A DNA stretch of 64,000 nt, from the IMG/VR virus record IMGVR_UViG_3300045988_115849. The stretch is one strand, 5' to 3'. Shown here piece after piece: positions 1,975 to 23,277 of this stretch. How positions within the stretch are numbered: position 1 is the stretch's first letter; each line of letters starts with the position of its first letter. Below the pieces are notes generated by a model. It was given only the letters and a program-made list of their open reading frames with translations, did not search any database and had not been told where the DNA came from. This DNA is from a virus. The position numbers were made by a program, and so were the translations under genes.

Positions 1975-2048
1975 GGACCGTTAACTCAGCGGGTGAGAGT
2001 ATCCGGCTCATAACCGGAAGGCCACAGGTTCGAATCCTGTACGGTCCA
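1975..2048 (+). tRNA. tRNA with CAT anticodon (Met, or Ile2 if lysidine-modified)
   Basis: Hand-folded cloverleaf. Acceptor GGACCGT/ACGGTCC, D stem ACTC/GAGT, anticodon stem TCCGG/CCGGA with loop CTCATAA, T arm ACAGG-TTCGAAT-CCTGT, discriminator A. No CCA is encoded. Confidence 0.85.
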
Positions 2049-2221
2049 TTGAGTGATGCTAACAGCAAATTTTAATGTATTATAAAATGTTTTTGAAGGT
2101 TAATGCACAAGCATCATGTTCTTAGGGACTCATACAGCAAATAAAAAGTACAATGCAACAAAAAAACAAGCCATGACGTATAGCATACTTCACGAGTCCT
2201 GATTATGAAAGAGAGGGAAAT

Positions 2222-3682
2222 ATGAATTTTGCACAAGCAGTGGAAAGAGAAACAAAGTTCACAAAGACAGAGAATGGAGCAGTTGCTTTGAATACTACAG
2301 GCAATGCATGTCTTGATTTGTATTCAACAATTGGAAGTCTTAGAGATGCAGAACTATCAAGAGTTCTATCCTTGTTTGACGAAGCGTACAAAGAAAATCC
2401 GTTACTTGCTACAAAAATCGTATTTTACGCAAGAGATGTAAGAGGTGGATTAGGAGAAAGAAAAGTTTTCCGCGATCTGATTCATCATATGGCTTGCGTA
2501 TACCCTGAAAGTATTAAAAATAACATTTATTGGATTCCTGAATATGGGCGTTACGATGATTGGTACGCATTGGTCGATACGCCTTTAGAACAGGATATGT
2601 GGAACCATATGAAATCACTGATGGTTGAAGATTTCAAAGACTACAACAATGGAAAACCAATATCATTATTGGCTAAATGGTTAAAGACCGCGGATGCAAG
2701 CTCTAAGAAAACAAGGGAGCTTGGAATTAAGACAGCACTTGGTTTTGGTATATCTGTTCGAAATTATAAAAGGATTGTCCGTAATCTTAGAAAATACTTA
2801 AAGATTACGGAAACATATATGTCTGCGAACAAATGGAACGAGATATCTTATCCATCAGTTCCTAGTAGATGTATGTTGAACAACCAATATGCTTTTTATC
2901 GTCATGATGCAGAAAGATTCCAACAGTACAAGGAAGATGTGTCAAACGGAAGGCAAAAGATCAATTCAAGTACACTGTATCCATATGATTTGATCAATGA
3001 AATTGATTCACCATACGAGAGCGATCATGCCATTGCAGAAGCACAGTGGAAGAATCTCCCGAACTATGTAGAACCGGGAAGAAACGTATTAGTTATGGCT
3101 GATGTATCAGGTTCCATGAATGGAAGACCTATGCAAACTTCTATAGGACTTGCAATATATTTTGCAGAAAGAAATATTGGTCCATATCATAATATGTTTA
3201 TGACATTTAGCGCTGACCCTAAATTTGTATCACTAAAAGGGGATACACTATACGAAAAATATAGAAATGTAATGTTTTCGGAATGGGGATTTAATACAGA
3301 CCTGAAAAAAGCATTTGATAAGATTTTGAAGATTGCGATTGATAATCATATAGATCAGGAAGAAATGCCAGAAGCACTTGTTGTCATTTCTGATATGGAA
3401 ATTGATCAGTGCACAAATGATAGTTGGACGTTTTATGATCAGATGGCTGATGAATTTAAAAAACATGGTTATAACATTCCTAACATTGTGTTCTGGAATG
3501 TTCAAAGTAGAAATAATGTTTTTCATGCTGACAGCAACCGAAAAGGTGTTCAGTTATGTTCTGGGCAGTCAGCATCAACATTTCAAAATGTCATTTCCGC
3601 AATTGGTCTTACGCCAATAGAAGCAATGGAAATGGTAATAAATTCAGAAAGATACGATAACATTTCGATTACCTCCAAATAA
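2222..3682 (+). CDS. DUF2828/TROVE-like + vWA protein (Ro60-related architecture)
   Basis: 486 aa. The N-terminus TENGAVALNTTGNACLDLYS...DVRGGLGERK matches the DUF2828 signature as I recall it. The C-terminal half has a vWA MIDAS-like DxSxS motif (MADVSGSM) and VVISDME. Confidence 0.75.
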   Translation: MNFAQAVERETKFTKTENGAVALNTTGNACLDLYSTIGSLRDAELSRVLSLFDEAYKENPLLATKIVFYARDVRGGLGERKVFRDLIHHMACVYPESIKNNIYWIPEYGRYDDWYALVDTPLEQDMWNHMKSLMVEDFKDYNNGKPISLLAKWLKTADASSKKTRELGIKTALGFGISVRNYKRIVRNLRKYLKITETYMSANKWNEISYPSVPSRCMLNNQYAFYRHDAERFQQYKEDVSNGRQKINSSTLYPYDLINEIDSPYESDHAIAEAQWKNLPNYVEPGRNVLVMADVSGSMNGRPMQTSIGLAIYFAERNIGPYHNMFMTFSADPKFVSLKGDTLYEKYRNVMFSEWGFNTDLKKAFDKILKIAIDNHIDQEEMPEALVVISDMEIDQCTNDSWTFYDQMADEFKKHGYNIPNIVFWNVQSRNNVFHADSNRKGVQLCSGQSASTFQNVISAIGLTPIEAMEMVINSERYDNISITSK

Positions 3683-3686
3683 GTTG

Positions 3687-3760
3687 TGGTATATAGCTCA
3701 ATTGGATAGAGCGCAACACTACGAATGTTGAGGATGCCAGTTCAAGTCTGGCTATACCAT
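3687..3760 (+). tRNA. tRNA-Arg (ACG)
   Basis: Hand-folded cloverleaf. Acceptor TGGTATA/TATACCA, D stem GCTC/GAGC, anticodon stem CAACA/TGTTG with loop CTACGAA, T arm GCCAG-TTCAAGT-CTGGC. Confidence 0.85.
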
Positions 3761-4324: not shown

Positions 4325-6034
4325 ATGCAAGAAGGAAGTTTTGAATGGTATCAATCGGTCTTTAAGTCAATATTGGACGGACAGATGGATTTGTATGAAA
4401 ACCAGAATGATACATACCAATTGTTGCTCAACATGAAGCAAGAATTAACATTTAACAATAAAGAGGTCATGGACTATGCAATCAAGATAAGCAAGTATGC
4501 CCATGAAATGGCTGCATATATGGCAGCAACGACAGGAATGGCGGAATATGACGATCTATACTGGAAGTTTCTGCTTCTGGAAGGTCAGCATTATCAGGTA
4601 GATAGTGGTTTGCTATATCTTGAAAAGAACAGAGTACCTTCTGAGAGGTTCTACGAACCACGTAGATCGGTTTTTATGCAACACGGGATAATTCAATCAT
4701 TGCAAGATTTAATGGACGATAAATTGGACATATTTGCGTTAAGTGTTCCACCCGGTTGTGGAAAGTCAACACTGGAAGACTTTTTCTTATCTCTTGTTGG
4801 TGGTTGGTTTCCAAATTGTTTTAACTTATCTTCTGCCCATAGTAGCATTTTGACACGATCACTGTATGATGGAGTTCTTGAAATTATAAATGATCCAGTA
4901 GAATACACATGGCATGAGATTTTTCCGAATGTGCAGATGCAAGGAACAAACGCAAAAGAAACAACAGTAAACCTTGAAAGAAATGGCCGTTTCAAAACGT
5001 GGACGTTTCGTTCGATTGACGGATCGTTAACAGGTGCGACACGTTGTAATAAATTTCTTACCGCGGACGACTTGGTATCAGGAATTGAAGAAGCATTGAA
5101 TAAAAACCGACTGAAAACACTCTGGACGAAAGTTGCAAACGATTTACGATCAAGACGATTGGACGGTTGCAAAGAGTTCTATATTGCGACACGATGGAGT
5201 GTTCATGATCCGATTGGAAAGCTACAGACACTATATGCAGGTGATCCGAGAGCAAGATTTATTGCAGTACCGGCACTAAATGAAAAAGGCGAAAGCAATT
5301 TCATGTTTACTGTAAATGGATTCTCTAAAGAGTATTTTGAAGATGCAAGAAAAGCTATGGATGATATTTCGTTTAACTGTTTATACCAACAAAAACCAGT
5401 AGAGCGTGAAGGACTATTATTACCGGCGGATGAATTAAGAAGATTTTATCTTGAAAAACATCATGTTCCTGAGGGGGTATCCGGTTATACAGTATTTCCT
5501 AAAAAAGACCCAGATGCTATCTGGGGTGTCTGCGATACAAAAGATAAGGGAACCGACTTTGAATCCCTTCCGATTGCATATCAGTTTGGAGAAGATTTTT
5601 ATATACCGGATGTTGTATTTGACGATGAAACGAATTATGAAATTCTTGATAACAAGACAGCTGCAATTCTTATCAGACATCAACCACATAAGGTGCGCTT
5701 TGAATCAAACCAAGCCGGAGGAAGAATTGCAGATAATATAAGCAAAATGATCAAAGGCAAAGCAAGGACAATTATTGAACCAAAATACACAACAGCAAAT
5801 AAAGAAACCAAAATTTTGGTCAATTCAGATTGGATAAAGAAGCATTGCTTATTTTTAGAACCATCAGAATACCAAGTAAAGTCTGATTATGGAAGATTCA
5901 TGGAAAATGTAACTTCTTACACAACAAAGGCGAAGGTTCTGCATGATGATGGTCCTGACTCATTAGCTATGTTAGCAGAATTTGTATCAAAGCCAGAAGC
6001 ACGACAAAGTTATATCAGACAAAGTCCAGTTTAG
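4325..6034 (+). CDS. terL: Terminase large subunit
   Basis: 569 aa. Walker A-like PPGCGKST and Walker B-like FLTADDLVSG, with a C-terminal nuclease-like half. Lies upstream of the portal gene. Confidence 0.9.
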   Translation: MQEGSFEWYQSVFKSILDGQMDLYENQNDTYQLLLNMKQELTFNNKEVMDYAIKISKYAHEMAAYMAATTGMAEYDDLYWKFLLLEGQHYQVDSGLLYLEKNRVPSERFYEPRRSVFMQHGIIQSLQDLMDDKLDIFALSVPPGCGKSTLEDFFLSLVGGWFPNCFNLSSAHSSILTRSLYDGVLEIINDPVEYTWHEIFPNVQMQGTNAKETTVNLERNGRFKTWTFRSIDGSLTGATRCNKFLTADDLVSGIEEALNKNRLKTLWTKVANDLRSRRLDGCKEFYIATRWSVHDPIGKLQTLYAGDPRARFIAVPALNEKGESNFMFTVNGFSKEYFEDARKAMDDISFNCLYQQKPVEREGLLLPADELRRFYLEKHHVPEGVSGYTVFPKKDPDAIWGVCDTKDKGTDFESLPIAYQFGEDFYIPDVVFDDETNYEILDNKTAAILIRHQPHKVRFESNQAGGRIADNISKMIKGKARTIIEPKYTTANKETKILVNSDWIKKHCLFLEPSEYQVKSDYGRFMENVTSYTTKAKVLHDDGPDSLAMLAEFVSKPEARQSYIRQSPV

Positions 6035-6043
6035 AGGTAAAAA

Positions 6044-6463
6044 ATGACAGCGAAAGAATATTTAATGCAATTACAGTTCCTTGATAAAAAAATACATAAT
6101 AAATTGTCAGAAGTATATCAGTTGAGAGCGTTAGCGACTAGTGCATCCGTAGCAATCGGTTCTGATAAAGTACAAACTTCAAAACAAAAAGATCGTATGG
6201 GAGATGCAATAGCCAATATTGTAGATAAAGAAAGAGAAGCTAATAGAGAAATCAAAAGATTTCTGATCAAGAAAAAAGAAATTATATCAGTGATCGAAAC
6301 AACAGAAAATCCAAATCATTATGATCTTCTTTTTAAGAGATATGTTGAGTACAAAACATTAAGAATGATACAAAATGAAATGGGTTATTCCTTGCAACAT
6401 GTAAAAAGAATGCATAAAGAAGCATTAGATGAAATTAAGAAAATCAAAGGATTTGAAGAATAA
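6044..6463 (+). CDS. DUF1492 / sigma-70 region-4-like phage regulator
   Basis: 139 aa. The N-terminal MTAKEYLMQLQFLDKKI pattern and the C-terminal HTH (YKTLRMIQNEMGYSLQHVKRMHKEAL) resemble DUF1492-type late regulators of Clostridia phages. Confidence 0.55.
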   Translation: MTAKEYLMQLQFLDKKIHNKLSEVYQLRALATSASVAIGSDKVQTSKQKDRMGDAIANIVDKEREANREIKRFLIKKKEIISVIETTENPNHYDLLFKRYVEYKTLRMIQNEMGYSLQHVKRMHKEALDEIKKIKGFEE

Positions 6464-6487
6464 GACTCTATGATACACAATAAGACC
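6461..6487 (+). promoter_or_regulatory. 27-nt box TAAGACTCTATGATACACAATAAGACC (copy 1)
   Basis: Near-identical to 22763-22789. TAAGAC occurs as direct repeats 20 nt apart, and the first TAA is the stop codon of the upstream gene. TATAAT lies 18 nt downstream at 6506-6511. Confidence 0.5.
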
Positions 6488-6524
6488 TTTTAGTTTAGTA
6501 TACTATATAATAGATTTTAAGTAA

Positions 6525-6558
6525 GCATTTGTGGATGTATTTCCGCAGATGCTTTTTT
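6525..6558 (+). terminator. Intrinsic terminator between the 27-nt box and the portal gene
   Basis: 10-bp stem GCATTTGTGG/CCGCAGATGC (2 G.U pairs), 8-nt loop, then TTTTTT. Confidence 0.7.
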
Positions 6559-6584
6559 ATTGCGAAGAAAGAGGTGAAACGACA

Positions 6585-8147
6585 ATGGGTTTAGAAGCAA
6601 GACTGCTTGGAAGAACAAAAATCTATACAGATGAGACAATCATTGATGAAGATAACATATTATCAGTCTTGCGAAAAGCTTATGCAAAACACTTATTTAA
6701 TCGCAGACAGATGCAGTTTCTGATTGACTATGAAGGCGGACAGCAGCCATTAAAACGACAAAAAATAGTAAGACCAGACATTGACATAAAGGTTAATGGA
6801 AGTGTTGCAAACTACGTCAAAGAATTTAAGATTGGCTACAATTGGAGCAGCCCTATCATGTTGGTTCAACGTGGCGACAAGGAAATGCATGACTCTGATT
6901 CAAAAACGGATGATGCAGGAATCACTTCATTAAATGAGATTCTAACAAATGGAGAAAACATCGGTTATAAAGATCAGTGTATGGCAGAGTTTATTGAAAT
7001 CTGCGGTATCGGTCATAGAATGATCGACATTAAGACAGATTTTGACGATATGGAAGATGGTGAACCTGAATCTCTGGTAGATGTGTATACACTTGACTCC
7101 AGATATGCTTTTTGCGTATATAACAACGGGACAGGTCAGAAAAAAGTTTTAGGTGTTACATACAGGAAAGTTTCAGGAAAGCTGTATTTTACATGTTTTA
7201 CTAAAGAATACCGCTATGAGATTCAATCAGGTGAGGTCGTTTCAGTAGAAAAGAATCCACTGAAAGATATTCCGATTATTGAGTATGAAAGAAGTTTTGA
7301 CAGAACGGGATGCTTCGAAAGAAAGATTCCAGAAATTGATGCACTCAATATTTTAATGTCAGACTTTACGAATGATGTGTCACAGAGAACACAGGAAATA
7401 TGGTGGGGGAACGACATTAAGTTCCCAGTAGATGACGAAGGAAATGAGATTCAACCTAAAAGTGGTCAGTGGTTAGTAACATATTCAAATGAAAATGGAA
7501 AACCAAGTGTTCAACCACTTTCAAGCACATTTGATTCTGGCAGTACATTATCTGCTATTTCTGATTACCGCAGTAGAATCTTTCAGGATTGTAAAGTCCC
7601 TATTCAGTACGAAAGTTCTGGCAGCGGATCAACGGGGACAGCAACCGACATGAGTTCTGGATGGAGTGCAGCAGAATTGGATGCCATGAGAGAACAGCAA
7701 ATGACTGAGAAGGGCAAGAGAGAAGAAATTAAATTGATCCTAAGAGCGATTCAGTTAGTTCCTTCAAAAATTCTTCCTGAAGACAGCCCGATCAGAAAAA
7801 TACACAGTTCTGATATAGACTTTCATTTTAACAGAAGAAAGAATTATGACATGTCTGTTAAGGCAAACACTTTTGCTACATATGTGAGTCACGGAATCCA
7901 CGGAAGACACGCATTAAAGGTAGTTGACGCGTTTGGTGATGTGGAACAAGTTTGGAACGATAGTCAGGAAATGATTGAAAAATATCAGGAATCTTTGTGG
8001 AAAACATCTGATAGTAGCAGCACTTCAACCATAGGAGATACTGGTAGCAATACATCAGAAAAGATTCAAGGCGATACATCTGATCAGACAGGAAACTCGC
8101 CGATATTAGATGGATTGAATACAGACTCAAATAAGATTCAGGCATAA
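6585..8147 (+). CDS. Portal protein (SPP1 gp6-like)
   Basis: Large ORF after terL with portal-like central motifs. I moved the start from GTG 6531 to ATG 6585, because the upstream codons span the terminator and RBS AGAGGTGA precedes 6585. Confidence 0.85.
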   Translation: MGLEARLLGRTKIYTDETIIDEDNILSVLRKAYAKHLFNRRQMQFLIDYEGGQQPLKRQKIVRPDIDIKVNGSVANYVKEFKIGYNWSSPIMLVQRGDKEMHDSDSKTDDAGITSLNEILTNGENIGYKDQCMAEFIEICGIGHRMIDIKTDFDDMEDGEPESLVDVYTLDSRYAFCVYNNGTGQKKVLGVTYRKVSGKLYFTCFTKEYRYEIQSGEVVSVEKNPLKDIPIIEYERSFDRTGCFERKIPEIDALNILMSDFTNDVSQRTQEIWWGNDIKFPVDDEGNEIQPKSGQWLVTYSNENGKPSVQPLSSTFDSGSTLSAISDYRSRIFQDCKVPIQYESSGSGSTGTATDMSSGWSAAELDAMREQQMTEKGKREEIKLILRAIQLVPSKILPEDSPIRKIHSSDIDFHFNRRKNYDMSVKANTFATYVSHGIHGRHALKVVDAFGDVEQVWNDSQEMIEKYQESLWKTSDSSSTSTIGDTGSNTSEKIQGDTSDQTGNSPILDGLNTDSNKIQA

Positions 8148-9952: not shown

Positions 9953-9958
9953 GACAAA

Positions 9959-10019
9959 TACCGGTTATTAGAAAAGATAGATAATCGCTAACCCTCAATA
10001 GTTACAGGGTAGAAAGGAG
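9959..10019 (+). promoter_or_regulatory. Conserved two-hairpin structural-gene leader, copy 1 (capsid)
   Basis: TACC, then P1 (GGTTATT/GATAATC), then GCTAACCCTCAATAGTTACAGGGTAGAAAGGAG. The 36-nt 3' part is identical to 13851-13886. Confidence 0.6.
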
Positions 10020-10025
10020 AACAAT

Positions 10026-11096
10026 ATGTTATTAACAGACGTTTTTTCAGCGGAAGCAGTAGCACTCGCTAGAACTTCTGATGTAAGTAATTCCATGGCA
10101 TATGCCGGACTTGCTTTTTTCCCAAATAAAAAGAAAACTGGAATTGACCTGAAATGGATCAAAACACATAAAGGTCTTGGAGTTGCATTAAAACCATCTG
10201 CATTTGATGGTATGGCAACAATCCGTGCAAGAAAAGGATTCAAAGTGACAAATGAAGAAATGCCACTTTTTCGTGAATCTATGGTTGTAAAAGAACAGGA
10301 TTTAGCAGAGATCACAAGAGCTCAGGAATCCAATGATCCATACCTTAATGAAGTTTTATCTCATATCTATGATGATACAAACGAGTTAATTGATGGTGCT
10401 GATATTGCAGCCGAACGCATGAGAATGCAGTTACTTGCACCAGTAGGCGGAGATATGAAAATTGTAATCGGTACAGCTGACAATGTAGCTTACAATTACA
10501 GTTATGATCCGAACGGCGATTGGAAAGCAAAACATTATGCATCTTTAGAAGGGACAAGCACATGGGATAAAGCGGATACATCCAAACCATTAAACGATAT
10601 TCAGAAGGGTATTGATTACCTGACAAGTATCGGTGTCTCACCTATGTATGCAATGATGACTTCAAAAACATTTAACTATCTGATTGAAAACTCTCAGATC
10701 AAAAATGCTATTATTACAATTTCTGGAAGAACAATTGATTTTGTATCTAAACAAGTTGTAAAAGAAGTGTTCCAGTCTCAGACAGGACTTATCCCAATTT
10801 TATACGATAAGAAGTTTGAGGACTATGACGGTAAAGATAAGAGCTTCTATCCTGATGATTATGTAACAATCATCGGTGAAGGACAGCTTGGTAATACATG
10901 GTATGGAGTGACACCAGAGGAAAGAACATTACTTGGTGATCCTAGTGTAGATGTAAGTGTCCTTGATGATACAGGAGTTGCAATTGCTGTTAAATCTGAA
11001 TACGGACCACCAGTATCTTATTCAACTACTGCTTCTCAGATTGTTCTCCCATCTTTTGAAGGCATGGACAGCATTTATGTTATGAAAGTAAAATAG
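10026..11096 (+). CDS. Major capsid protein (lambda E / Phage_cap_E-like, tentative)
   Basis: 356 aa after the scaffold gene, with a strong RBS and the conserved leader upstream. Sequence resembles E-type capsid proteins. Confidence 0.75.
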   Translation: MLLTDVFSAEAVALARTSDVSNSMAYAGLAFFPNKKKTGIDLKWIKTHKGLGVALKPSAFDGMATIRARKGFKVTNEEMPLFRESMVVKEQDLAEITRAQESNDPYLNEVLSHIYDDTNELIDGADIAAERMRMQLLAPVGGDMKIVIGTADNVAYNYSYDPNGDWKAKHYASLEGTSTWDKADTSKPLNDIQKGIDYLTSIGVSPMYAMMTSKTFNYLIENSQIKNAIITISGRTIDFVSKQVVKEVFQSQTGLIPILYDKKFEDYDGKDKSFYPDDYVTIIGEGQLGNTWYGVTPEERTLLGDPSVDVSVLDDTGVAIAVKSEYGPPVSYSTTASQIVLPSFEGMDSIYVMKVK

Positions 11097-13886: not shown

Positions 13887-13893
13887 TTTGATT

Positions 13894-14379
13894 ATGAGTG
13901 GTGTAGCCGGAATAAGTACAGTCGGTGTAAAAGTTGGATATGCAGTAGAAACTACAGCAGGAACAAAACCGGCAAAATTTAAACAGCTTCATCGTATCAA
14001 TGCCACGGATGATATTGGAATTGATACAGAGACAATCGATGCATCAGCATTAGAAGATGAAGTTGATAAAGAGATTGCAGGTAGAGGGTCAACAGGTGGA
14101 ACATTTAATGTCACTGTCAACTTAACGAACGAGACAGTTAAAGAATGGGAAACTTTGATCAGTGAATACAAAACAGGAAAAGCAGCAGGAAAAGCCGTAT
14201 GGTATGAAGAATATTACCCGGCACTTGATAAGGCATATTTCACAAAGATTGAGCCACCAGCACAGTTACCTAAGCCGGGGCTTGATCAGAATGGATTAGC
14301 AACCGTTGAAATGACATTGACAATCAACGAGTATGTCGGTCTTGATACCGCAGTAGAACCAGACGATACAGAAGTGTAA
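13894..14379 (+). CDS. Major tail protein
   Basis: 161 aa, with a strong RBS and the conserved leader upstream. Sequence is typical of siphophage major tail proteins. I prefer ATG 13894 to TTG 13888. Confidence 0.75.
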   Translation: MSGVAGISTVGVKVGYAVETTAGTKPAKFKQLHRINATDDIGIDTETIDASALEDEVDKEIAGRGSTGGTFNVTVNLTNETVKEWETLISEYKTGKAAGKAVWYEEYYPALDKAYFTKIEPPAQLPKPGLDQNGLATVEMTLTINEYVGLDTAVEPDDTEV

Positions 14380-14881: not shown

Positions 14882-15246
14882 TACTTGATACATTGTTTCC
14901 TCAGGCTGTAAAAGCCGGAATGACAAAAGATGAATTTTTTCACTCCACTCCAAAAGAAATTGGTGTATACATAAATGCATACAAAGAACAGAAAGAATAT
15001 GAATTGAAAAGTACAAATTATCAATCATGGTTAACAGGTTCTTATGTGTTGCAAGCGATTAATTGTGCTTTTTCTAAAAATGGGAATTATCCAGAAAACC
15101 CATTGCTAAAAGAAGAAAAAAGTATTGAATCAATTGAAAAGAGAAGTGGAAGAAGTAAAGAAGAAATGCAACAAGAATTAAGACTTATGGAACTCAGAGT
15201 TATGCAAGCAAATGCAAATATAGAAAAGATAGGGGCAGACGAATGA
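14761..15246 (+). CDS. Tail chaperone -1 frame extension (GT-like fusion part)
   Basis: The -1 frame is open from the slip site. The track ORF 14893-15246 has only a TTG start and no RBS, consistent with expression by frameshifting. Confidence 0.55.
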   Translation, partial: FFRSNRSEQDVRDRTRTEERTKETSGSQKENSESRSYREIILDTLFPQAVKAGMTKDEFFHSTPKEIGVYINAYKEQKEYELKSTNYQSWLTGSYVLQAINCAFSKNGNYPENPLLKEEKSIESIEKRSGRSKEEMQQELRLMELRVMQANANIEKIGADE

Positions 15247-15266
15247 TTCTGCCCTTTATTTTTTTA
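15233..15266 (+). terminator. Intrinsic terminator overlapping the chaperone stop codon
   Basis: Stem GGGCAGA/TCTGCCC, 8-nt loop, then TTTATTTTTTT. Confidence 0.7.
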
Positions 15267-15322: not shown

Positions 15323-18300
15323 ATGCCAGATAGTACAATAGAAACACTCGATATACAAGTGAAAAGTTCGACTGCCAGAGCTGTTACAGCACTTGATAAT
15401 TTGGCAAACAAATTATATGACGTGAGCAAAGCATTTAAGTCCGTAGATACTGGAAGTATGAGAAACTATTCTCGTGAGATAGGCAGGGTTTCTTCGTCTT
15501 TAAAATCAATGAGTGGTATCAAAATCAATGTACCTAAATTATCTGGTCTTAGTAAACAGTTACAGTCATTAACAAATGTTAATTTTACCGCCTTAAATGC
15601 AAGTTCAAAACCATTAAAAGAATTGGCTTCTGGACTGAATGCTTTAAAAGGCGTTTCAGGTGTTACGATACCAAAGCTAGATTATAAAAATATCAATTCA
15701 GTTTCCAAAGCAATTGAAAAGATAGGAAAATTAGATACTGGAAATATTCAAAATTCTGTGAATGGAATATCAAAAGTATCTCATGCAATGTCAGTTTTAA
15801 ATAACGTTGATTTTAGCGACAGCAAAATATCTTCTGTTATTAACTCTATCAGAAAATTAATGGCAGTTGATACAAAAGGTTTTGATACGCAGATTTTTGA
15901 CAGTATTTATAAGTCTGTGTCTAAACTTGGAAATCTTCCGGATGTTTCATCAAGTATCAATAGACTTGTTGCATCATTAGCTAGATTAATCAGTTCTGGA
16001 AATAATACTGGTATAGTTGCAAGTAAGCTTCCGGCGGTAGGAAATGCAATAAAGCAAACTGCAAATAAATTAGCATCTGTTAAAGGTGTTGAAGAATCAA
16101 TAAATCAATTCATATCAGCGTTAGCGAGTCTATCTTCTGCCGGCAAAAAAGTAGAATTAAGTGCTAACGGACTACAAATAATGGCAAAAGAACTTTTGTC
16201 ATTTTTCAATACCATGTCTAAAGCACCGGCTGTTAGTAAGAATACAGTAGAAATGACAAAGGCGTTGGCACAATTAGCAGCATCAGGCGGTAGAGTTAGT
16301 AGTGCTGTCAATACAATGAATACTTCTTTCGGAAAATTAAAGAACGGATTTTCTGAATTAGCAAGCTTAGCATCCAGAGCTGGGTCTGCTGTAAGTAGTG
16401 GTATTGGTAAAATGGTAAATGCTATTCGAAATATTGGGTCAGCAAGTGGAAGTATTTCAACCGTAAATTTCAGCTTAAAAAATCTTATTCAAACAGCTAT
16501 TGGATTTAAGGCGGTACAAGCATTTGGACAATTTACAAAGGATGCAATAACGTTAGGATCGGATATAACAGAAGCAGAAAACGTAATTGATGTTTCTTTT
16601 GGTAAATTAAAATACAAAGCGTATGATTTTGCTTCAACAGCTTCAAAGCAGTTTGGAGTATCTGAGTTGGCAGCTAAAAGATACACAGGAACCATAATGG
16701 CAATGTTGAAGTCATCAGGTGTCGCCCAAAATGCAGCATCCGACATGTCAGTAGCATTAGCCGGATTAGCGGGTGATATTGCATCTTTTTATAATATAGA
16801 TACTGATACAGCATTTTATAAAATCAGGGCAGGTATTTCTGGTGAGATTGAACCATTAAAGCAATTAGGTATTAACATGTCTGTTGCAAATATGAGTGCT
16901 TATGCTTTGGCAAACGGAATTACAAAGTCGTGGACTTCTATGACTCAGGCAGAACAGGCTACATTGAGATATAACTATTTAATGTCTGTAACAAAAGATG
17001 CACAGGGCGATTTTGCTCGTACTGCCGGTACTTGGGCAAACCAAGTACGTTTATTAAAATTAAACATTCAGTCATTATCAGCTGTTATGGGTCAAGGAAT
17101 TATTGCAGCTGTACTTCCGGCAATTAAAGCATTAAACGCTTTAATGAGCAGGCTTATGCAAGCAGCTAATATGTTCAGAAACTTTATGTATGTTCTGATG
17201 GGAAAAAAGATAAAAGGAGCAACAAAAGGTGTTGTAAATGATCTTGGTGGAGTTGGCGATTCTGCTACTGATCTTTCAGGACTTGGAAGTGCCGGAAACG
17301 ATGCATCTAAAGGGATGAACAAAGCATCTAAGGCAGCGAAAGAATTAAAGAAGACCTTATCCGTTCTGCCGTTTGATGAATTGAATCAGTTGAATGACAA
17401 TAAGCAATCAAGCGATACTGGATCTGGAGGAGGTGCAGGTGGTTCTGGAAGTGGCGGTGGAGTCGGCGGTGGAATTGGCGGACTCGGTGATTTGAGTGGT
17501 CTTGAAGATGAAGATTATGAAACACCAATTAGTCATTGGGCTTCAAGAATCAGAAAAGCATTTCTTGATAATAATTGGTATGGTGTTGGCCGTGAGATCG
17601 CAAATATGTTAAATGCCGGTCTGCAATTAGCCTATGATGCACTTGATTGGAAGAATGTTGGCCCTAAAATCACATCATTTACAACAAAATTTACTCAGGC
17701 AATCAATGGATTCCTTGATAATTTCGATTTTAAGTTATTAGGTAAAGTAGTTGGTGCAGGGATTACGGATGTAGTGAGAGCATTTAATCAAATTGCATCT
17801 CCTGATGGTGGTATAAACTTCAAAACTCTAGGTACTGGCATTGCAGAAAGTTTAAAAGGAATGATTCAGGAAATTCCATGGACAGAGTTAGGAAATGCAC
17901 TCGGAAACTATTTTATGATCTCATGGAGAATCTTAAACGGATTCTTGAATCAATTAGCAGCAACAGATAATACAGGCTTAACAGGATTTCAGCAAATCGG
18001 CGTTGCTCTTGGAAAAGCTGTAAATGGTATGTTCCAATCCATCGACTTCGCAACTATCGCAGATACATTTGCAGTAGGAATCAATGGAGTTTTTTCTATA
18101 CTTGGAAAAATCAATGAAACTGTACATTGGTCTGATATTGCAGCAAATATTTCTCACGGGATTAATACTTTTATCACCGGAGTTAACTGGGAAGAAAATG
18201 GACAAATATTAAGCACTTTTGTAAAAAATCTTCTTGGAGTATTTTCACAGGTAGCGCAAAATACAGACTGGGCAGGACTTGGAAAAGGCATTGGAACATT

Positions 18301-19936
18301 CCTAAGTAGTATTGATTGGAGTGGAATATTCGGAGAAGTATTTACAACAATCAAAACAATATTAGGTGGACTTATCTCAGGATTAGGAACCACAATCGAA
18401 GGAAAGTTTATTATAGCTTTTGGTGCTATTAAACTTGTTACAGCAGTGGATAAAATTGTAAGCCCTATACTTTCGGCGTTTGGTTTAATACCTAAAGAAG
18501 TAGATGGATCGTCTTCTTTATTAATCATAGCATTAAAGAAAATGGCAGGAGCTTTTTCAAAATCTACATTAGGTACTGCGATTGGAACGTATGTTTTGGA
18601 TGCGATTAGCCTTTTAAAAGGCATTCCGGGGAAGATTACAACAGATGTTGCACCGAAGATCGCGGAAGTTATTTCAACAAAATTATTTCCAAAAGCGGTT
18701 TCATTTGCAGGTGGAATTGTATCATGGGTAACAGGTACGTTTGCACCAGCTGTATCAGCTGCATTTAGCAGTGTTCTTGGCGTGCTGTTCTCACCGATTG
18801 GATTAGCTATAGTTGGAGTAATCGTTGGTGGATTTTTAATATACAAAAACTGGGGTGCAATATCTAAGTTTATCGGAAACGTAAAAGAGAATATTGTGAA
18901 TGGATTTAACAGCGCCGGAGAATGGTTAAAGGAAAAAGGGAAAAACCTTATTGAAGGCTTGCGCAATGGATGGGAAAGTGCAAAATCTGGTTTCGGAACA
19001 GCTGTTAGCACAATCGGCAAATTTATTAAAGAGAAAGTTGGAAACGCCGGTGAATGGTTGAAAGAAAAAGGGCAGGATGCAGTCGAAGGTATCCGTAGTG
19101 GATGGGAGTCTGTAAAAGAAAGCAAAGTCGGTCAGGCAGCCGCAGGTATCGGAAATTACATCAAAGGTAAAGTCACTGGTGCTGAGAATTGGTTGGTTGA
19201 AAAAGGTAAGCAAGCTGTCAATGGGATGAAAAACGGTTGGGAGAACGTGAAGAACGGAAACTTCCAATCAACCGTAAAAGGATTAAAGAGTTTTACGGTA
19301 AATACATTAGCAAACACATCTCCGGCAGCATGGTTGGTTGCCAAAGGAGCAGAAGCTATGAAAGGTATGCTTTCTGGATTAAAAGGAGATAAATGGACAG
19401 ATGCTAGAAACTGGTTGAAAAAGTTACCGAGCAATGTAAAAAATGCCGTTGGAGATATGTATAAAGTTGGGCAAAATATCATTAAGCAGTTTATTAATGG
19501 TTTTAAATCTTTACGTATTCCAACACCTCATATTTCTTGGGGAACAAAAGACTTTAATTTTGGTGGAATGAGCTTAAGCATACCAACTAAATTTAAAGTA
19601 GATTGGTATAAAAAAGGTGGATTATTTGATTCTGCATCCGTGATCGGTGTCGGTGAAGCCGGATCAGAAGCTGTATTACCACTTGAAAATCCAAAAACTA
19701 TGAAGATGATCGCAGATAGTATCGTTGGTAATTCCGGCGGTATGGTTGATGAAAGTATCATTGCTGATGCTGTAGAACGTGGAGTAGTTGTTGCTATGAT
19801 GAACAATAGCGGAAATCAACCAGATATAAACTTATACGCAACATTATATACAGAAGATAACGAAGTTCTTGCAAGGTCTGTTGCAAAAGGACAAGCAAGA
19901 AATAATTACAGATTAAAACCATCAAGTGCATATTGA
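15323..19936 (+). CDS. Tape measure protein
   Basis: 1537 aa, helical and repetitive, with a Gly-rich tract and C-terminal approx 40-aa repeats (AGEWLKEKG..AVEG.R.GWE). Confidence 0.9.
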   Translation: MPDSTIETLDIQVKSSTARAVTALDNLANKLYDVSKAFKSVDTGSMRNYSREIGRVSSSLKSMSGIKINVPKLSGLSKQLQSLTNVNFTALNASSKPLKELASGLNALKGVSGVTIPKLDYKNINSVSKAIEKIGKLDTGNIQNSVNGISKVSHAMSVLNNVDFSDSKISSVINSIRKLMAVDTKGFDTQIFDSIYKSVSKLGNLPDVSSSINRLVASLARLISSGNNTGIVASKLPAVGNAIKQTANKLASVKGVEESINQFISALASLSSAGKKVELSANGLQIMAKELLSFFNTMSKAPAVSKNTVEMTKALAQLAASGGRVSSAVNTMNTSFGKLKNGFSELASLASRAGSAVSSGIGKMVNAIRNIGSASGSISTVNFSLKNLIQTAIGFKAVQAFGQFTKDAITLGSDITEAENVIDVSFGKLKYKAYDFASTASKQFGVSELAAKRYTGTIMAMLKSSGVAQNAASDMSVALAGLAGDIASFYNIDTDTAFYKIRAGISGEIEPLKQLGINMSVANMSAYALANGITKSWTSMTQAEQATLRYNYLMSVTKDAQGDFARTAGTWANQVRLLKLNIQSLSAVMGQGIIAAVLPAIKALNALMSRLMQAANMFRNFMYVLMGKKIKGATKGVVNDLGGVGDSATDLSGLGSAGNDASKGMNKASKAAKELKKTLSVLPFDELNQLNDNKQSSDTGSGGGAGGSGSGGGVGGGIGGLGDLSGLEDEDYETPISHWASRIRKAFLDNNWYGVGREIANMLNAGLQLAYDALDWKNVGPKITSFTTKFTQAINGFLDNFDFKLLGKVVGAGITDVVRAFNQIASPDGGINFKTLGTGIAESLKGMIQEIPWTELGNALGNYFMISWRILNGFLNQLAATDNTGLTGFQQIGVALGKAVNGMFQSIDFATIADTFAVGINGVFSILGKINETVHWSDIAANISHGINTFITGVNWEENGQILSTFVKNLLGVFSQVAQNTDWAGLGKGIGTFLSSIDWSGIFGEVFTTIKTILGGLISGLGTTIEGKFIIAFGAIKLVTAVDKIVSPILSAFGLIPKEVDGSSSLLIIALKKMAGAFSKSTLGTAIGTYVLDAISLLKGIPGKITTDVAPKIAEVISTKLFPKAVSFAGGIVSWVTGTFAPAVSAAFSSVLGVLFSPIGLAIVGVIVGGFLIYKNWGAISKFIGNVKENIVNGFNSAGEWLKEKGKNLIEGLRNGWESAKSGFGTAVSTIGKFIKEKVGNAGEWLKEKGQDAVEGIRSGWESVKESKVGQAAAGIGNYIKGKVTGAENWLVEKGKQAVNGMKNGWENVKNGNFQSTVKGLKSFTVNTLANTSPAAWLVAKGAEAMKGMLSGLKGDKWTDARNWLKKLPSNVKNAVGDMYKVGQNIIKQFINGFKSLRIPTPHISWGTKDFNFGGMSLSIPTKFKVDWYKKGGLFDSASVIGVGEAGSEAVLPLENPKTMKMIADSIVGNSGGMVDESIIADAVERGVVVAMMNNSGNQPDINLYATLYTEDNEVLARSVAKGQARNNYRLKPSSAY

Positions 19937-19975
19937 TTTGTGTAAAACTTTATGCTATGATGAATTTAAGTTAAG

Positions 19976-20035
19976 AGACATACACAGGATGCAAAGGTCA
20001 TGAAGACCACACAATCCTGTGTATGTCTTTTTTTA
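19976..20035 (+). terminator. Strong intrinsic terminator after the tape-measure gene
   Basis: 15-bp stem AGACATACACAGGAT/ATCCTGTGTATGTCT with an inner GGTC/GACC stem, then TTTTTTT. Confidence 0.85.
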
Positions 20036-20171: not shown

Positions 20172-21200
20172 ATGAGTAAGAAATTAGATTTATTTTTCAA
20201 AAGTAACGTATTAGTAATCAATCCTGATCTTGCAAAAATGATTGGCTTAAATGAAGCAATCGTTCTGAATCAAATCTATTATTGGATTTCCGTAAATAAA
20301 AAACAGAACAGAAATTTCCACGATGGTAAATATTGGTGCTATAACTCTATCAGAGAGTGGCAGGAAGAAAATTTTCCGTTTTGGTCACATAAGACCGTTG
20401 AGCGTATTTTTTATAGTTTACGCAACAAGGGTCTTGTTTTAGTGGGAAATTATAACAATCGTCGTAATGGTTCTACATCTACAAAGTGGTATACAGTAAA
20501 CGATGAGGTTTTAGAAGAAATCATTGATCAGATTTTAGACGAACCAGAATCAGACCATACAGTTAGACAGAATAACTTTGAAAGCGACAACTTGACCGAA
20601 GCATTACCAGAGACTAACACAGATATTAACAATGCTTTATCTAACGATAAAGATTATGCTTTTTTATCAACAGAAGATAAAGATAATAATGATGTGTGTA
20701 GAGATAAAAAAGACTTCATGCCTATTTCTGGGAGAAATAAGGTCAAAATCATAAAGAGAAAGGGAAATAAAACTACTCTTAGTCAGACAATTGAAGATAA
20801 AATCCATTTAGGTTTTAGAGTCAATCAAGAGTTTGACGATGATTTGTATAACAATTCAAAAGATGAATGTGTAATCGGAGATATTGTTAAATACTTTTTC
20901 AAAAAATATCAGTTGGAGAAAGGAACAGACCATCCAATGATCTCTGACGAAAAATGCGTAGAGTTGGTTGAGAAGTTTTATTTTGTTCCTGAGAATATGC
21001 AAGACACAGAACTGGATTTTGATTTATACAAACTTATGATTGATAAATACTTTGCAACAGAATATGGCAAAAATAGCGGATTCACAATTAATTACCAGAT
21101 CATGCACTTTATGAATTATAAAATCCGTGAAAATCTATTCTACAAAGTTCAGGATGAATACTATGACAATGTTAAGAGTGATTATCCTGTTGAGATATAG
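20172..21200 (+). CDS. Winged-helix (DnaD / RepA_N / replisome-organiser-N-like) protein with unknown C-terminal domain
   Basis: 342 aa. N-terminal LAKMIGLNEAIVLNQIYYW...KTVERIFYSLRNKGLV...KWYTV resembles a winged-helix domain. This is followed by an acidic linker. RBS GAGGTGA upstream. Confidence 0.5.
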   Translation: MSKKLDLFFKSNVLVINPDLAKMIGLNEAIVLNQIYYWISVNKKQNRNFHDGKYWCYNSIREWQEENFPFWSHKTVERIFYSLRNKGLVLVGNYNNRRNGSTSTKWYTVNDEVLEEIIDQILDEPESDHTVRQNNFESDNLTEALPETNTDINNALSNDKDYAFLSTEDKDNNDVCRDKKDFMPISGRNKVKIIKRKGNKTTLSQTIEDKIHLGFRVNQEFDDDLYNNSKDECVIGDIVKYFFKKYQLEKGTDHPMISDEKCVELVEKFYFVPENMQDTELDFDLYKLMIDKYFATEYGKNSGFTINYQIMHFMNYKIRENLFYKVQDEYYDNVKSDYPVEI

Positions 21201-21227
21201 AATCATCAAAGAAAAGGAGAAGAAAAG

Positions 21228-21782
21228 ATGAAAAATACAACATGGAAAATACCATTGATTGTTCTAGCTGCGATTGTAGCAATAGCGTTAGTTGGCATAT
21301 TTATGATTCACATACCACAGAATCATGCAAATTCGATGGAAGAACAGATAATGGAATCAAAGGCGGCAATTAACGTTCAGGAAAAGAGAAGACAGGATTT
21401 AGTGTATAATCTGGCAGACAGTGTGAAATCTTACAACAAACATGAAGCCGAAACACTGAAAAATATTGTTAAAGAGAGAAGTTCAAATACCGGGAAAATT
21501 GAAAGTACAGGTACAGCGATTGCAGCAATAAAAGAATCTTATCCAGAATTAAAAGCTGACAAGAATTATCAACGGCTTATGAAAGAATTAGCAGTTACAG
21601 AGAATAAGATTTCTGACGTAAGAGACAATTACAATCAGCAGATCAAAGAATACAACAGATATGTCGTGAACTTTCCAGTGAACTTTTTCTTGAAACTGTT
21701 AGGATACAAACAGAAAACATATCAATATTTAAAATTTGAGGATGCAACAGAGACAGCACCGCAGAATTTATTTAGTGAGTAG
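21228..21782 (+). CDS. lemA: LemA family membrane protein
   Basis: N-terminal TM, then VQEKRRQDLVYNL...ESYPELKADKNYQRLMKEL..TENKIS..R..YN...KEYN, which are typical LemA motifs. Confidence 0.85.
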   Translation: MKNTTWKIPLIVLAAIVAIALVGIFMIHIPQNHANSMEEQIMESKAAINVQEKRRQDLVYNLADSVKSYNKHEAETLKNIVKERSSNTGKIESTGTAIAAIKESYPELKADKNYQRLMKELAVTENKISDVRDNYNQQIKEYNRYVVNFPVNFFLKLLGYKQKTYQYLKFEDATETAPQNLFSE

Positions 21783-21785
21783 CCT

Positions 21786-22538
21786 ATGAGAAAATTCAAA
21801 GGATTTCAGTTTGATACTTTTGAAATAACTCCACGAGAGATTATAGCAAGCGTTGTTATTGTTGGATTAATGTTTCTGATTGGCTTTACTATCAGTGGGA
21901 AAATTGATAATTACATCATGGATCAGAACGAAGAATATAATCGTGCTGCAAAAATTGAAAGCAATGATCTTTTTCAGTATGGGATGGAAACAGACTTGGG
22001 CAATGCATTTGTTTATGGGAAGATAGAGCCGGTTGATACAGTTACATACAAAGAAATTGGTGGTAAGTATTATTATATCAGGAAGATCAGAGAAGAATAT
22101 CGCAGACATGAAAAAACCGAAAGAGTTAAAGACAGCAAAGGAAAAGTTCATTACAAAAAGAAAGTCTGGTATTCATGGGATGATGTATGGAGAGAAAGTA
22201 GGACTTGTAAAAAGATTAAATTTGCAGGCAAGAAATTCAAGGAAGATAAGATTAACTTCATGGGAGGTCATTATCTAAAAAGAATTTATCATACTTCTCG
22301 TGTCAGGTATGAATACTATGGTATGGAAGCAAAGCCCGTTAAGGGAACTGTTTACACAAAGCTAAAAAATAATACTATGACAAGCTGTGATTTGAATAAG
22401 TCAAATCTAAAAGACACAGTTGAATCATACAAAACAAGTGGTGGAGTTTGTAAAATTCTGTTTTGGGTATTCTGGATCACTGGGACAGGGTTAGCGGTGT
22501 TCGGATTTTATTATTTGGATAATCATTGGTTAGAGTAG
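21786..22538 (+). CDS. Two-TM membrane protein (LemA partner; GIDE-like architecture, tentative)
   Basis: 250 aa. N-terminal TM (IIASVVIVGLMFLIGFTISG) and C-terminal TM (ILFWVFWITGTGLAVFGFYYL) flank a Lys-rich domain. Confidence 0.5.
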   Translation: MRKFKGFQFDTFEITPREIIASVVIVGLMFLIGFTISGKIDNYIMDQNEEYNRAAKIESNDLFQYGMETDLGNAFVYGKIEPVDTVTYKEIGGKYYYIRKIREEYRRHEKTERVKDSKGKVHYKKKVWYSWDDVWRESRTCKKIKFAGKKFKEDKINFMGGHYLKRIYHTSRVRYEYYGMEAKPVKGTVYTKLKNNTMTSCDLNKSNLKDTVESYKTSGGVCKILFWVFWITGTGLAVFGFYYLDNHWLE

Positions 22539-22549
22539 GAGGATATGAT

Positions 22550-22765
22550 ATGATCAAAAAAATTAGAAAAAATAAATTAGCTGTATCAATTATTGCAGTA
22601 ATCTTGGGAATGATCATAGTTTTTGCGGTCAATTTTGGAATTGTCAATTTTGTTTTGTGGTTGCTACAGTTTATTGTTGCAAAGCCTTTGGTTGTGACAT
22701 TAAAAGGAAAAGCAGCAGCTACTGTATTGTTAACACTTGTTGTACATATTTTTAGCCGCAAATAA
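22550..22765 (+). CDS. Small two-TM membrane protein
   Basis: 71 aa. I chose ATG 22550, which lies 7 nt after GGAGG. Confidence 0.5.
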   Translation: MIKKIRKNKLAVSIIAVILGMIIVFAVNFGIVNFVLWLLQFIVAKPLVVTLKGKAAATVLLTLVVHIFSRK

Positions 22766-22789
22766 GACCACATGATACACAATAAGACC
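22763..22789 (+). promoter_or_regulatory. 27-nt box TAAGACCACATGATACACAATAAGACC (copy 2)
   Basis: 24 of 27 positions identical to 6461-6487. The first TAA is again a stop codon. TAAAAT lies 18 nt downstream (22808-22813) and TATAAT is at 22801-22806. Confidence 0.5.
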
Positions 22790-22819
22790 AAAGAGTATTG
22801 TATAATATAAAATTATAAA

Positions 22820-22847
22820 ACGTCTATCGAGAACGATAGGCGTTTTT
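22820..22847 (+). terminator. Intrinsic terminator after 27-nt box copy 2
   Basis: 10-bp stem ACGTCTATCG/CGATAGGCGT (1 G.U pair), loop AGAA, then a T-run. Confidence 0.7.
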
Positions 22848-22855
22848 GCAGTTTA

Positions 22856-22908
22856 TACGGTCAATAAAAGCGAAAATTGATCGCTAACCTTAAATAGTTG
22901 GAGGTGGA
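22856..22908 (+). promoter_or_regulatory. Structural-gene leader, copy 4 (Dit-like gene; variant)
   Basis: TAC, then P1 (GGTCAAT/ATTGATC), then GCTAACCTTAAATAGTTGGAGGTGGA, 6 nt before ATG 22915. Confidence 0.55.
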
Positions 22909-22914
22909 TTTTTT

Positions 22915-23277
22915 ATGGCAGAACACATGATAGAAGTTAATGGTAAAGTAATGCCATGTCCAGCTTCTTATGAATGGTCATTGCAAGATGTATCAGCATC
23001 GGATTCAGGAAGAACAGATGATGCATTGATGCATAAAAATAGAAAAGCACAGAAAAGAAAGTTGGCATTGAAATGGAATGCTAAAACACCAGATGTTACT
23101 TCTGAAATATTGAAAGCCTTTAATCCAGAATATGTAAAAGTAAGATATTGGGACATGATGGCAAATAAATATCAGACAAGAACATTTTACACAGGGGACA
23201 GAAAAGCACCTGTGAAATGGTGGATAAAAAATAAAAAAATTATAGAGAGTGTTTCTTTTGACATAATAGAGAGGTAA
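22915..23277 (+). CDS. Small tail component (possible minimal distal tail protein)
   Basis: 120-aa ORF immediately upstream of Tal. Assigned from position only. Confidence 0.35.
   Translation: MAEHMIEVNGKVMPCPASYEWSLQDVSASDSGRTDDALMHKNRKAQKRKLALKWNAKTPDVTSEILKAFNPEYVKVRYWDMMANKYQTRTFYTGDRKAPVKWWIKNKKIIESVSFDIIER

Follow-up and report, generated by a model that had tools for sequence, protein, structure and literature searches.

Results

A box, a terminator and an RNA leader stacked before the tail-tip genes

The 64,000-nucleotide (nt) stretch of DNA analysed here (IMG/VR virus record IMGVR_UViG_3300045988_115849; hereafter the window) is a low-G+C siphovirus-type phage genome, and near-identical phages are present in many IMG/VR and human-gut metagenome contigs. 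The interval at positions 22763-22908 lies at the end of a four-gene island within the tail module, directly before the first tail-tip gene. An initial annotation had described a 27-nt box, an intrinsic terminator and a structural-gene leader stacked in this interval, and all three elements were found at these positions. Its further claims held as well: two boxes are present in the window, fold and T-run confirm the terminator, a covariance model recovers the leader as one of exactly four copies, and the downstream gene, from which a tail-tip operon had been proposed to start, has its ATG at 22915. We consider it probable that the interval is a second late-promoter cassette of the Ltr type, fused to the structural-gene leader at the exit of the island. 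The features of the interval and of the first cassette are:

22526-22765, + strand, last open reading frame (ORF) of the island, 79-amino-acid (aa) hydrophobic protein, with the stop codon in the first hexamer of box copy 2
22761-22789, + strand, box copy 2, putative Ltr operator, AATAAGAC-CACA-TGATACAC-AATAAGACC
22801-22813, + strand, predicted -10 elements of cassette 2: TATAAT (22801-22806), 12 nt past the last repeat, and TAAAAT (22808-22813)
22819-22848, + strand, intrinsic terminator of cassette 2 (folding, T-run), also leader hairpin P0
22849-22857, + strand, A/U-rich single-stranded linker between P0 and P1, proposed cleavage zone, GCAGTTTATA
22852-22907, + strand, leader copy 4, before the DUF6711 gene, 76.8 bits
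22858-22883, + strand, leader hairpin P1, CGGTCAAT / ATTGATCG
22887-22908, + strand, leader hairpin P2, ACCTT / GAGGT; the 3' arm is the Shine-Dalgarno sequence GGAGGTGG
22915-23277, + strand, first tail-tip gene, 120 aa, DUF6711, phrog_1194, in the position of a distal-tail protein
6044-6463, + strand, 139-aa late regulator, Ltr superfamily (RinA/ArpU) by profile matches
6459-6487, + strand, box copy 1, hexamers TAAGAC, TGATAC and TAAGAC in 10-base-pair (bp) phase
6499-6511, + strand, -10-like hexamers of cassette 1: TATACT 12 nt past the last repeat, TATAAT at 19 nt
6523-6560, + strand, promoter-proximal intrinsic terminator of cassette 1, 13 pairs plus TTTTAT

The two boxes, TAAGACCACATGATACACAATAAGACC (22763-22789) and TAAGACTCTATGATACACAATAAGACC (6461-6487), are identical at 24 of 27 positions, with three mismatches at adjacent positions. 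Similarity runs over 53 nt at 79% identity (6459-6511 versus 22761-22813; repeat family D7). The stop codon of the regulator gene marks the start of box copy 1; in copy 2, the hexamers TAAGAC, TGATAC and TAAGAC start at 22763, 22773 and 22783. The pattern AATAAGAC-N12-AATAAGAC, allowing up to two mismatches, occurs at exactly these two sites in the window against 0.14 expected, and a stricter scan for three hexamers returned the same two, each accompanied by a -10-like hexamer, where 0.09 were expected. In both copies a second -10-like hexamer follows 1 nt after the first. Transcription from cassette 2 is predicted to start at about 22813, and in both cassettes the predicted start precedes the terminator stem by 5-12 nt.

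Comparison of 13 haplotypes showed that the three hexamers of box 2 and TATAAT are invariant. Changes are confined to the box spacer, the loop and closing pair of the terminator, the P1 loop and the second -10-like hexamer, which varies in one haplotype; the terminator stem is retained. Variable columns make up 18 of 155 in the non-coding cassette and 59 of 176 in the adjacent ORF. A search with an 18-mer pattern of the box recovered near-identical relatives alone and none more distant, and in a host search a 16-mer, run against one genome per species, gave chance matches and no full box. Rfam contained no match for the box, the terminator or the leader. The most fitting interpretation of the box is an operator for an Ltr-dependent promoter, because the layout of repeats, -10 element and terminator recurs at homologous regulator loci.

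The regulator gene and its counterparts in other phages

The 139-aa protein encoded directly before box copy 1 has an N-terminal coiled-coil region (beginning MTAKEYLMQ) and a C-terminal helix-turn-helix resembling region 4 of sigma-70. It matches phrog_36 (5e-20) and phrog_248, which are phage 'transcriptional regulator/activator' families. In the aligned regulator family, Sigma70_r4 is matched by 12 of 20 members and DUF1492 by 11, several of them above the curated cut-off, such as the homologues at locus L075 (DUF1492, 29.1 bits) and locus L092 (Sigma70_r4, 32.5 bits). The family profile also matches region 4 of FliA, SigF and SigA in the PDB (E = 2.5e-6). Judged by these profiles, the regulators of the Sigma70_r4 and DUF1492 types correspond to LtrA and LtrB, two branches of the Ltr superfamily, whose members activate late genes in Gram-positive phages. 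Where annotated phages carry a homologue of the regulator, they are Clostridia phages from the human gut and are filed under Candidatus Heliusvirales. The regulator gene of the window has the large terminase gene on one side and the portal gene on the other, so that the terminase gene would lie upstream of the first late promoter.

For the Ltr superfamily, experiments have shown binding to direct repeats that closely follow the ltr gene, and a terminator has been inferred in the same gap (PMC3753634, PMC3152322, PMC13123087). We compared 39 non-identical homologue loci from about 15 lineages, whose regulators share 24-43% identity. The order that recurs starts with a stop codon and two to three direct repeats, phased at 10 or 20 bp, and continues with a -10-like hexamer, a hairpin with T-run and a ribosome-binding site. 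The late gene that follows is often an HNH endonuclease gene, and the repeat sequences are unrelated between lineages. We found exact phased repeats at 28 of these 39 loci and a terminator at 36. In most lineages measured, 11-13 nt separate the last repeat from the first -10-like hexamer; in both copies of the window, this gap is 12 nt. At loci L056, L057 and L059, the regulators have a common N-terminus of about 110 aa and differ only in the C-terminal helix-turn-helix, each with a different repeat, a pairing that mirrors the published result for RinA (PMC3753634). Searches with the box patterns of three other lineages returned mostly chance matches, with one copy per relevant contig. In addition, at L075, L079 and L080 (about 2950-3100) and at L056-L062 (about 2960-3060), an RNA-like conserved stretch of 90-200 nt, G+C-rich in the L075 lineage, replaces the bare hairpin; it lies between the Ltr-type -10 element and the terminator or next gene.

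The staphylococcal phage 80alpha shows a comparable order. In its rinA-terS gap (locus L682, 16220-16410), two TGGCAGT repeats follow the stop codon immediately, and TAAAAT lies 10 nt past the second of them. A terminator comes about 95 nt later, upstream of the published 5' end, which is 23 nt before terS. Two other placements of the start site were considered for the cassettes and rejected. A promoter 3' of the terminator, as in a phi11-like arrangement, would place any -10-like element there about 50-135 nt from the repeats, at a distance that varies between lineages, whereas the spacing of the upstream -10 element stays at 11-13 nt in most of them. A start inside the terminator stem, which would leave an incomplete hairpin, is at odds with the predicted starts 5-12 nt before the stems.

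The window thus resembles the systems of RinA (phi11 and 80alpha), ArpU, LtrA, LtrB (DUF1492) and LtrC (phi55 and Phi13) in having a small regulator with a region-4-like C-terminus, lineage-specific repeats from the regulator stop codon onward, a terminator in the gap and late genes behind it. It differs in that the regulator gene is placed between the large terminase and portal genes and not before a small terminase gene, and in having two cassettes in place of a single late promoter and a single late transcript. Furthermore, cassette 2 follows an unrelated gene in the tail module and not the regulator, and it carries the additional RNA leader.

The terminator is also the first hairpin of a leader motif

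The terminator of cassette 2 consists of the stem 22819-22829 / 22834-22844 (AACGTCTATCG / CGATAGGCGTT) with one G-U pair, followed by a T-run at 22843-22847. Its fold has a free energy of -16.8 kcal/mol (z = -4.9), which none of 200 shuffled sequences equalled. A simple terminator scan missed this + strand hairpin, probably since four T alone are left outside the fully extended stem. For the terminator of cassette 1, the corresponding values are -20.5 kcal/mol and z = -5.3, and the ribosome-binding site of the portal gene is directly 3' of it. The T-run ends about 35-50 nt past the predicted start in both cassettes. As the promoter would lie upstream of the terminator, transcripts initiated at the box would meet a good terminator within about 50 nt.

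The covariance model of the leader identified exactly four copies in the window, and the next-best match scored 11.5 bits. The other three copies, with the terminator that adjoins the third, are:

9956-10012, + strand, leader copy 1, before the major capsid gene, 68.0 bits
13827-13879, + strand, leader copy 2, before the tail-tube gene (13888-14379), 65.4 bits
15264-15316, + strand, leader copy 3, before the tape-measure gene, 53.3 bits
15231-15316, + strand, terminator (15231-15256 plus T-run) together with leader copy 3

Two further instances were found in the L641 lineage, one before the tape-measure gene and one before a tail gene. All six fold into P0, a single A/U-rich strand of 6-13 nt, P1, a 3-nt linker and P2. 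P0 amounts to a full terminator in the copies at the tape-measure and DUF6711 genes, and the hairpin at 22819-22848 therefore belongs to both the cassette and the leader. In P1, 98.6% of cells are paired, compared with 22-54% in slid controls, and five of eight pairs show compensatory changes. The instance at L641:1483-1534, 5' of the tape-measure gene of that phage, was detected by the covariance model alone; its P2 is CCGC/GCGG, where CCCT/AGGG or CCTT/GAGG is found elsewhere, and is thus compensated. Conserved sequences of the leader are ACCGG, CGCTRAC and the loop ATAGTT. In the leaders of the tape-measure and DUF6711 genes, the Shine-Dalgarno sequence forms the 3' arm of P2, and the capsid and tail-tube copies have a free Shine-Dalgarno sequence 3' of P2. 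Local Rfam matches at the leader were all below threshold and covered the terminator only. A promoter or a protein-binding palindrome was rejected as an explanation of the leader, as P1 covaries instead of keeping its sequence. We regard the leader as a candidate new RNA motif.

Processing and stabiliser leaders are known from Firmicutes, for example the RNase Y sites in cggR-gapA or saePQRS and 5' stabiliser hairpins. The leader of the window is similar to these in presenting an A/U-rich strand between two hairpins just before a highly expressed gene, and differs in having its own conserved sequences and no Rfam family; here, cleavage is proposed from the structure of the leader and from the known Firmicutes processing sites. 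If the linker is cleaved, as the layout suggests, the upstream message would end in a hairpin and the downstream message would begin with one. Northern blots of 80alpha and phi11 detected late RNAs of 2-4 kb only, for which the authors considered processing possible (PMC3152322).

A strong terminator at 15231-15266, GGGGCAGA...TCTGCCCC plus T-run, separates the tail-chaperone genes from the tape-measure leader. No promoter is present 3' of it, so late transcription must pass this terminator.

The second cassette stands at the exit of an island

The island and the hairpin before it comprise:

20172-22765, + strand, four-gene island (profile matches, ORFs)
19975-20035, + strand, long hairpin with T-run at the left island edge, read directly from the sequence

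The genes of the island code for a 342-aa DnaD/replication-initiator-like protein, LemA, a phrog_3886 protein and the 79-aa membrane protein whose stop codon lies in box 2. In the relatives L110-L112, the tape-measure gene is followed by a hairpin with T-run and then by the DUF6711 gene, and both island and box are missing. The annotations of two complete genomes, PV036449 and PV036458, place the tape-measure and distal-tail genes side by side. These gene orders bear out the placement of the interval at the right edge of an island in the initial annotation. Its view of a 'compound regulatory junction' also stands, given three recurring modules that are conserved above the adjacent coding sequence. 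The re-initiation that it proposed is supported by the regulator gene before copy 1 and by the box position, phasing and -10 spacing of an Ltr operator. Beyond these claims, our reading of the sequence is that the box is a promoter or operator, that the promoter is upstream of the terminator, and that the terminator is the first leader hairpin.

Three complete relatives carry one box each in the stretch fetched from the regulator gene through the late genes, and pattern scans of two further lineages found a single box per contig. An independent case of the second cassette is contig 3300045988_123515, where the order is tape-measure gene, terminator, island, GATACT three times, 12 nt, TAAAAT, terminator and DUF6711 gene. 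The DUF6711 protein is 63% identical to that of the window. The island of this contig starts with an initiator-like gene whose product has a C-terminal domain in common with that of the window (27% over 109 aa, E = 5e-9), and the repeat resembles the box found after regulators of the L075 type.

The island of the window is not distinct in composition (G+C 0.32-0.35, versus 0.32-0.34 in the genes after it), and models of defence systems found no match among its proteins. In lambdoid phages, morons are extra gene blocks between conserved structural genes and are bounded by terminators. The island is similar to these, since it lies between genes that are adjacent in the island-free relatives and has terminators at its edges. 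It differs by the putative regulator-specific late promoter at its exit and by its indistinct composition.

Several further observations concern the island and its borders. A sigma-A-like promoter at 19933-19961 (TTGATT, 17 nt, TGcTATGAT) overlaps the tape-measure stop codon; the hairpin at 19975-20035 is directly 3' of it, which makes another promoter-then-terminator pair, and an untranslated stretch of 135 nt separates this hairpin from the first island gene. That gene, the DnaD/replication-initiator-like gene (20172-21200), is located in the tail module, and a distant homologue, with 27% identity over the C-terminal 109 aa, occupies the same place in a second phage lineage (L141, 7099-8175). 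In L107 (contig 3300045988_077551, 2888-3850), shorter ORFs replace the 250-aa phrog_3886 gene, and box 2, terminator and leader are kept despite the altered island content. In L117-L120, the DUF6711 gene matches from residue 33 onward, and its N-terminal part apparently lies about 300 nt upstream; the intervening sequences (about 300 nt before 4001) look alike by eye and resemble an intron or other insert. A group I intron was considered there and rejected, as Rfam gave no support.

Gene map of the window

The remaining landmarks of the window are:

1975-2048 and 3687-3760, + strand, two tRNA genes
4325-6034, + strand, large terminase gene
6531-8147, + strand, portal gene
10026-11096, + strand, major capsid gene
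13888-14379, + strand, tail-tube gene, assigned from a weak sub-threshold Phage_TTP_16 match and gene position
15323-19936, + strand, tape-measure gene

After the DUF6711 gene, the + strand encodes large tail and fibre proteins and an endolysin, and an integrase gene is on the opposite strand. An Rfam scan of the window brought the two tRNAs alone above threshold. Within 1975-3760, with a tRNA gene on each side, a 486-aa protein with DUF2828 and DUF7788 domains is encoded (phrog_850, 'RNA-binding protein').

Discussion

Proposed mechanism

We propose that the 139-aa Ltr protein would bind the three phased hexamers (22763-22788) and recruit host RNA polymerase to the consensus TATAAT element 12 nt downstream. 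Late transcription would then restart at about 22813, behind an island that is closed by terminators at both sides. Polymerases coming from the island would be halted by the hairpin with T-run at 22819-22848, and the expression of the tail-tip genes would consequently depend on the late regulator. Polymerases that started at the box would have to pass the same hairpin. Passage by means of a retained Ltr protein, in the manner of lambda Q, seems to us slightly likelier than the alternative, which is leakage; a dedicated antitermination event at the junction, as raised in the initial annotation, may be involved. The hairpin also opens the three-hairpin module (P0, linker, P1 and P2) that precedes the capsid, tail-tube, tape-measure and tail-tip genes. 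Most likely, this module marks a cleavage site at which the downstream message keeps a protective 5' hairpin, and P2 with its Shine-Dalgarno sequence may set the strength of translation.

Comparison with lambda and TP901-1

In lambda, the Q gene is directly before the late promoter PR', the Q site is at the promoter, the terminator tR' follows shortly after the start, and further terminators are present inside the late operon. The window is alike in that its regulator gene is directly 5' of the predicted promoter, with a putative regulator site at the promoter itself, a terminator soon after the start and more terminators within the late operon. It differs in the distance of the terminator, which would be at about +40 to +50 compared with about +190, and the regulator has no demonstrated sequence relationship to Q proteins. 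The second -10-like hexamer sits at another position than the pause element of lambda, and it is the element that varies in one haplotype.

A different parallel is Alt of the lactococcal phage TP901-1, which is reported to bind phased repeats from about -76 to -32 at a late promoter without a normal -35 element (PMC3152322). The two systems are alike in having an activator on phased repeats at a late promoter, if our reading of the box is right, and Alt belongs to another protein family. To our knowledge, neither a second copy nor a promoter-proximal terminator is known for the Alt system.

Alternative explanations

The strongest competing explanation, which has a realistic but clearly lesser chance of being correct, is that the Ltr protein is a plain promoter activator and the promoter-proximal terminator a leaky insulator, which would hold back read-through as well as basal initiation and let a fraction of the many late transcripts pass. 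Ltr proteins are described solely as activators in published work (PMC3753634, PMC3152322, PMC13123087), and promoterless internal terminators such as that at 15231-15256 must leak or be read through and could set protein ratios. Homology to Q is also unconvincing: among the 20 family members, L075 alone matches PF06530, at 20 bits (below the cut-off of 26) and over about 30 residues. On the other hand, both terminators of the window are strong, and about 15 lineages as well as 80alpha retain the order of promoter and then terminator, whereas a plain insulator would work equally well upstream of the promoter.

Much less probable is that the interval is simply the end of a moron-type island, with the box a relic duplication without promoter activity and the tail-tip genes reached by read-through from the first late promoter. 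The island is missing in relatives and has hairpins with T-runs at both ends, and island-free L110-L112 still have a hairpin with T-run between the tape-measure and DUF6711 genes, all of which would fit. A relic would not be expected to keep its hexamers and TATAAT invariant in 13 haplotypes while the flanks vary, nor to show the same 12-nt geometry as copy 1 and other lineages, and the independent lineage described above has the same arrangement with its own repeat sequence.

It is very improbable that box, -10 element and terminator form a two-copy gene for a small RNA of about 35-45 nt. Although a terminator does follow immediately after the promoter in both copies, the two would-be RNAs have no common sequence beyond the hairpins, the transcribed stretch is unrelated in other lineages too, and the terminator alone is conserved. 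A recombination, packaging or attachment repeat, as two direct copies 16.3 kb apart might suggest, is likewise very improbable, because there is no copy at the left island edge, copy 1 is exactly at the usual position of an Ltr operator, the 10-bp phased hexamers and fixed -10 spacing indicate a promoter, and relatives carry a single copy.

Several points weigh against the assignment of the interval as a second Ltr-type late-promoter cassette. Protein binding at the box, the start site and the dependence on the regulator are predictions from sequence, as are passage of the terminator and RNA cleavage. Unless prevented, transcripts from box 2 should largely stop at the terminator, and the lack of convincing homology to Q weakens the mechanism that we favour for their escape. 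The regulator of the window itself scores below the Pfam cut-offs (Sigma70_r4, 20.9 versus 24.1 bits; DUF1492, 18 versus 21.5 bits). For contig 3300045988_123515, neither a protein search nor a gapped DNA pattern found the regulator, and the evidence for the leader spans two phage lineages only. In phi11 and 80alpha, the primary 5' end has been reported 3' of the terminator, 23 nt before terS (PMC3152322), so a start beside the repeats is not established even in these model phages. In addition, one late transcript is reported for the characterised Ltr phages (PMC3152322, PMC13123087).

Implications for late gene control

A broader possibility, which we put forward tentatively and regard as doubtful at present, is that Ltr regulators in general (RinA, ArpU, LtrA, LtrB and the gut-phage family) are region-4-like polymerase-loading factors that confer resistance to terminators and are functional analogues of lambda Q. 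The unit of repeats, -10 element and terminator would then be a loading cassette, and the two cassettes in this phage would re-license polymerase after the island. This idea fits the conserved order of promoter and terminator as well as the strong terminators inside the late operon (15231-15256 and 19975-20035). RinA depends on sequences that lie more than 155 bp upstream from the mapped 5' end of terS (PMC3152322), and the idea, if true, would account for this requirement, with the terminator lying between. In the literature on the Ltr family, we found no paper that proposes antitermination. The layout shared by the gut phages and 80alpha makes the old puzzle of RinA directly testable, as an activator acting at a distance can be set against a Q-like antiterminator.

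Late control in Gram-positive phages has been described as one activator acting on one promoter. Here, a second putative target site is located in the tail module, and its position at the exit of the island suggests how such phages may tolerate insertions that carry terminators. The layout of repeats, a -10 element about 12 nt further on and a terminator is common to phages of gut Clostridia and to staphylococcal 80alpha. The leader, in turn, is a candidate new RNA motif that precedes the most important structural genes of phages that are widespread in the human gut.

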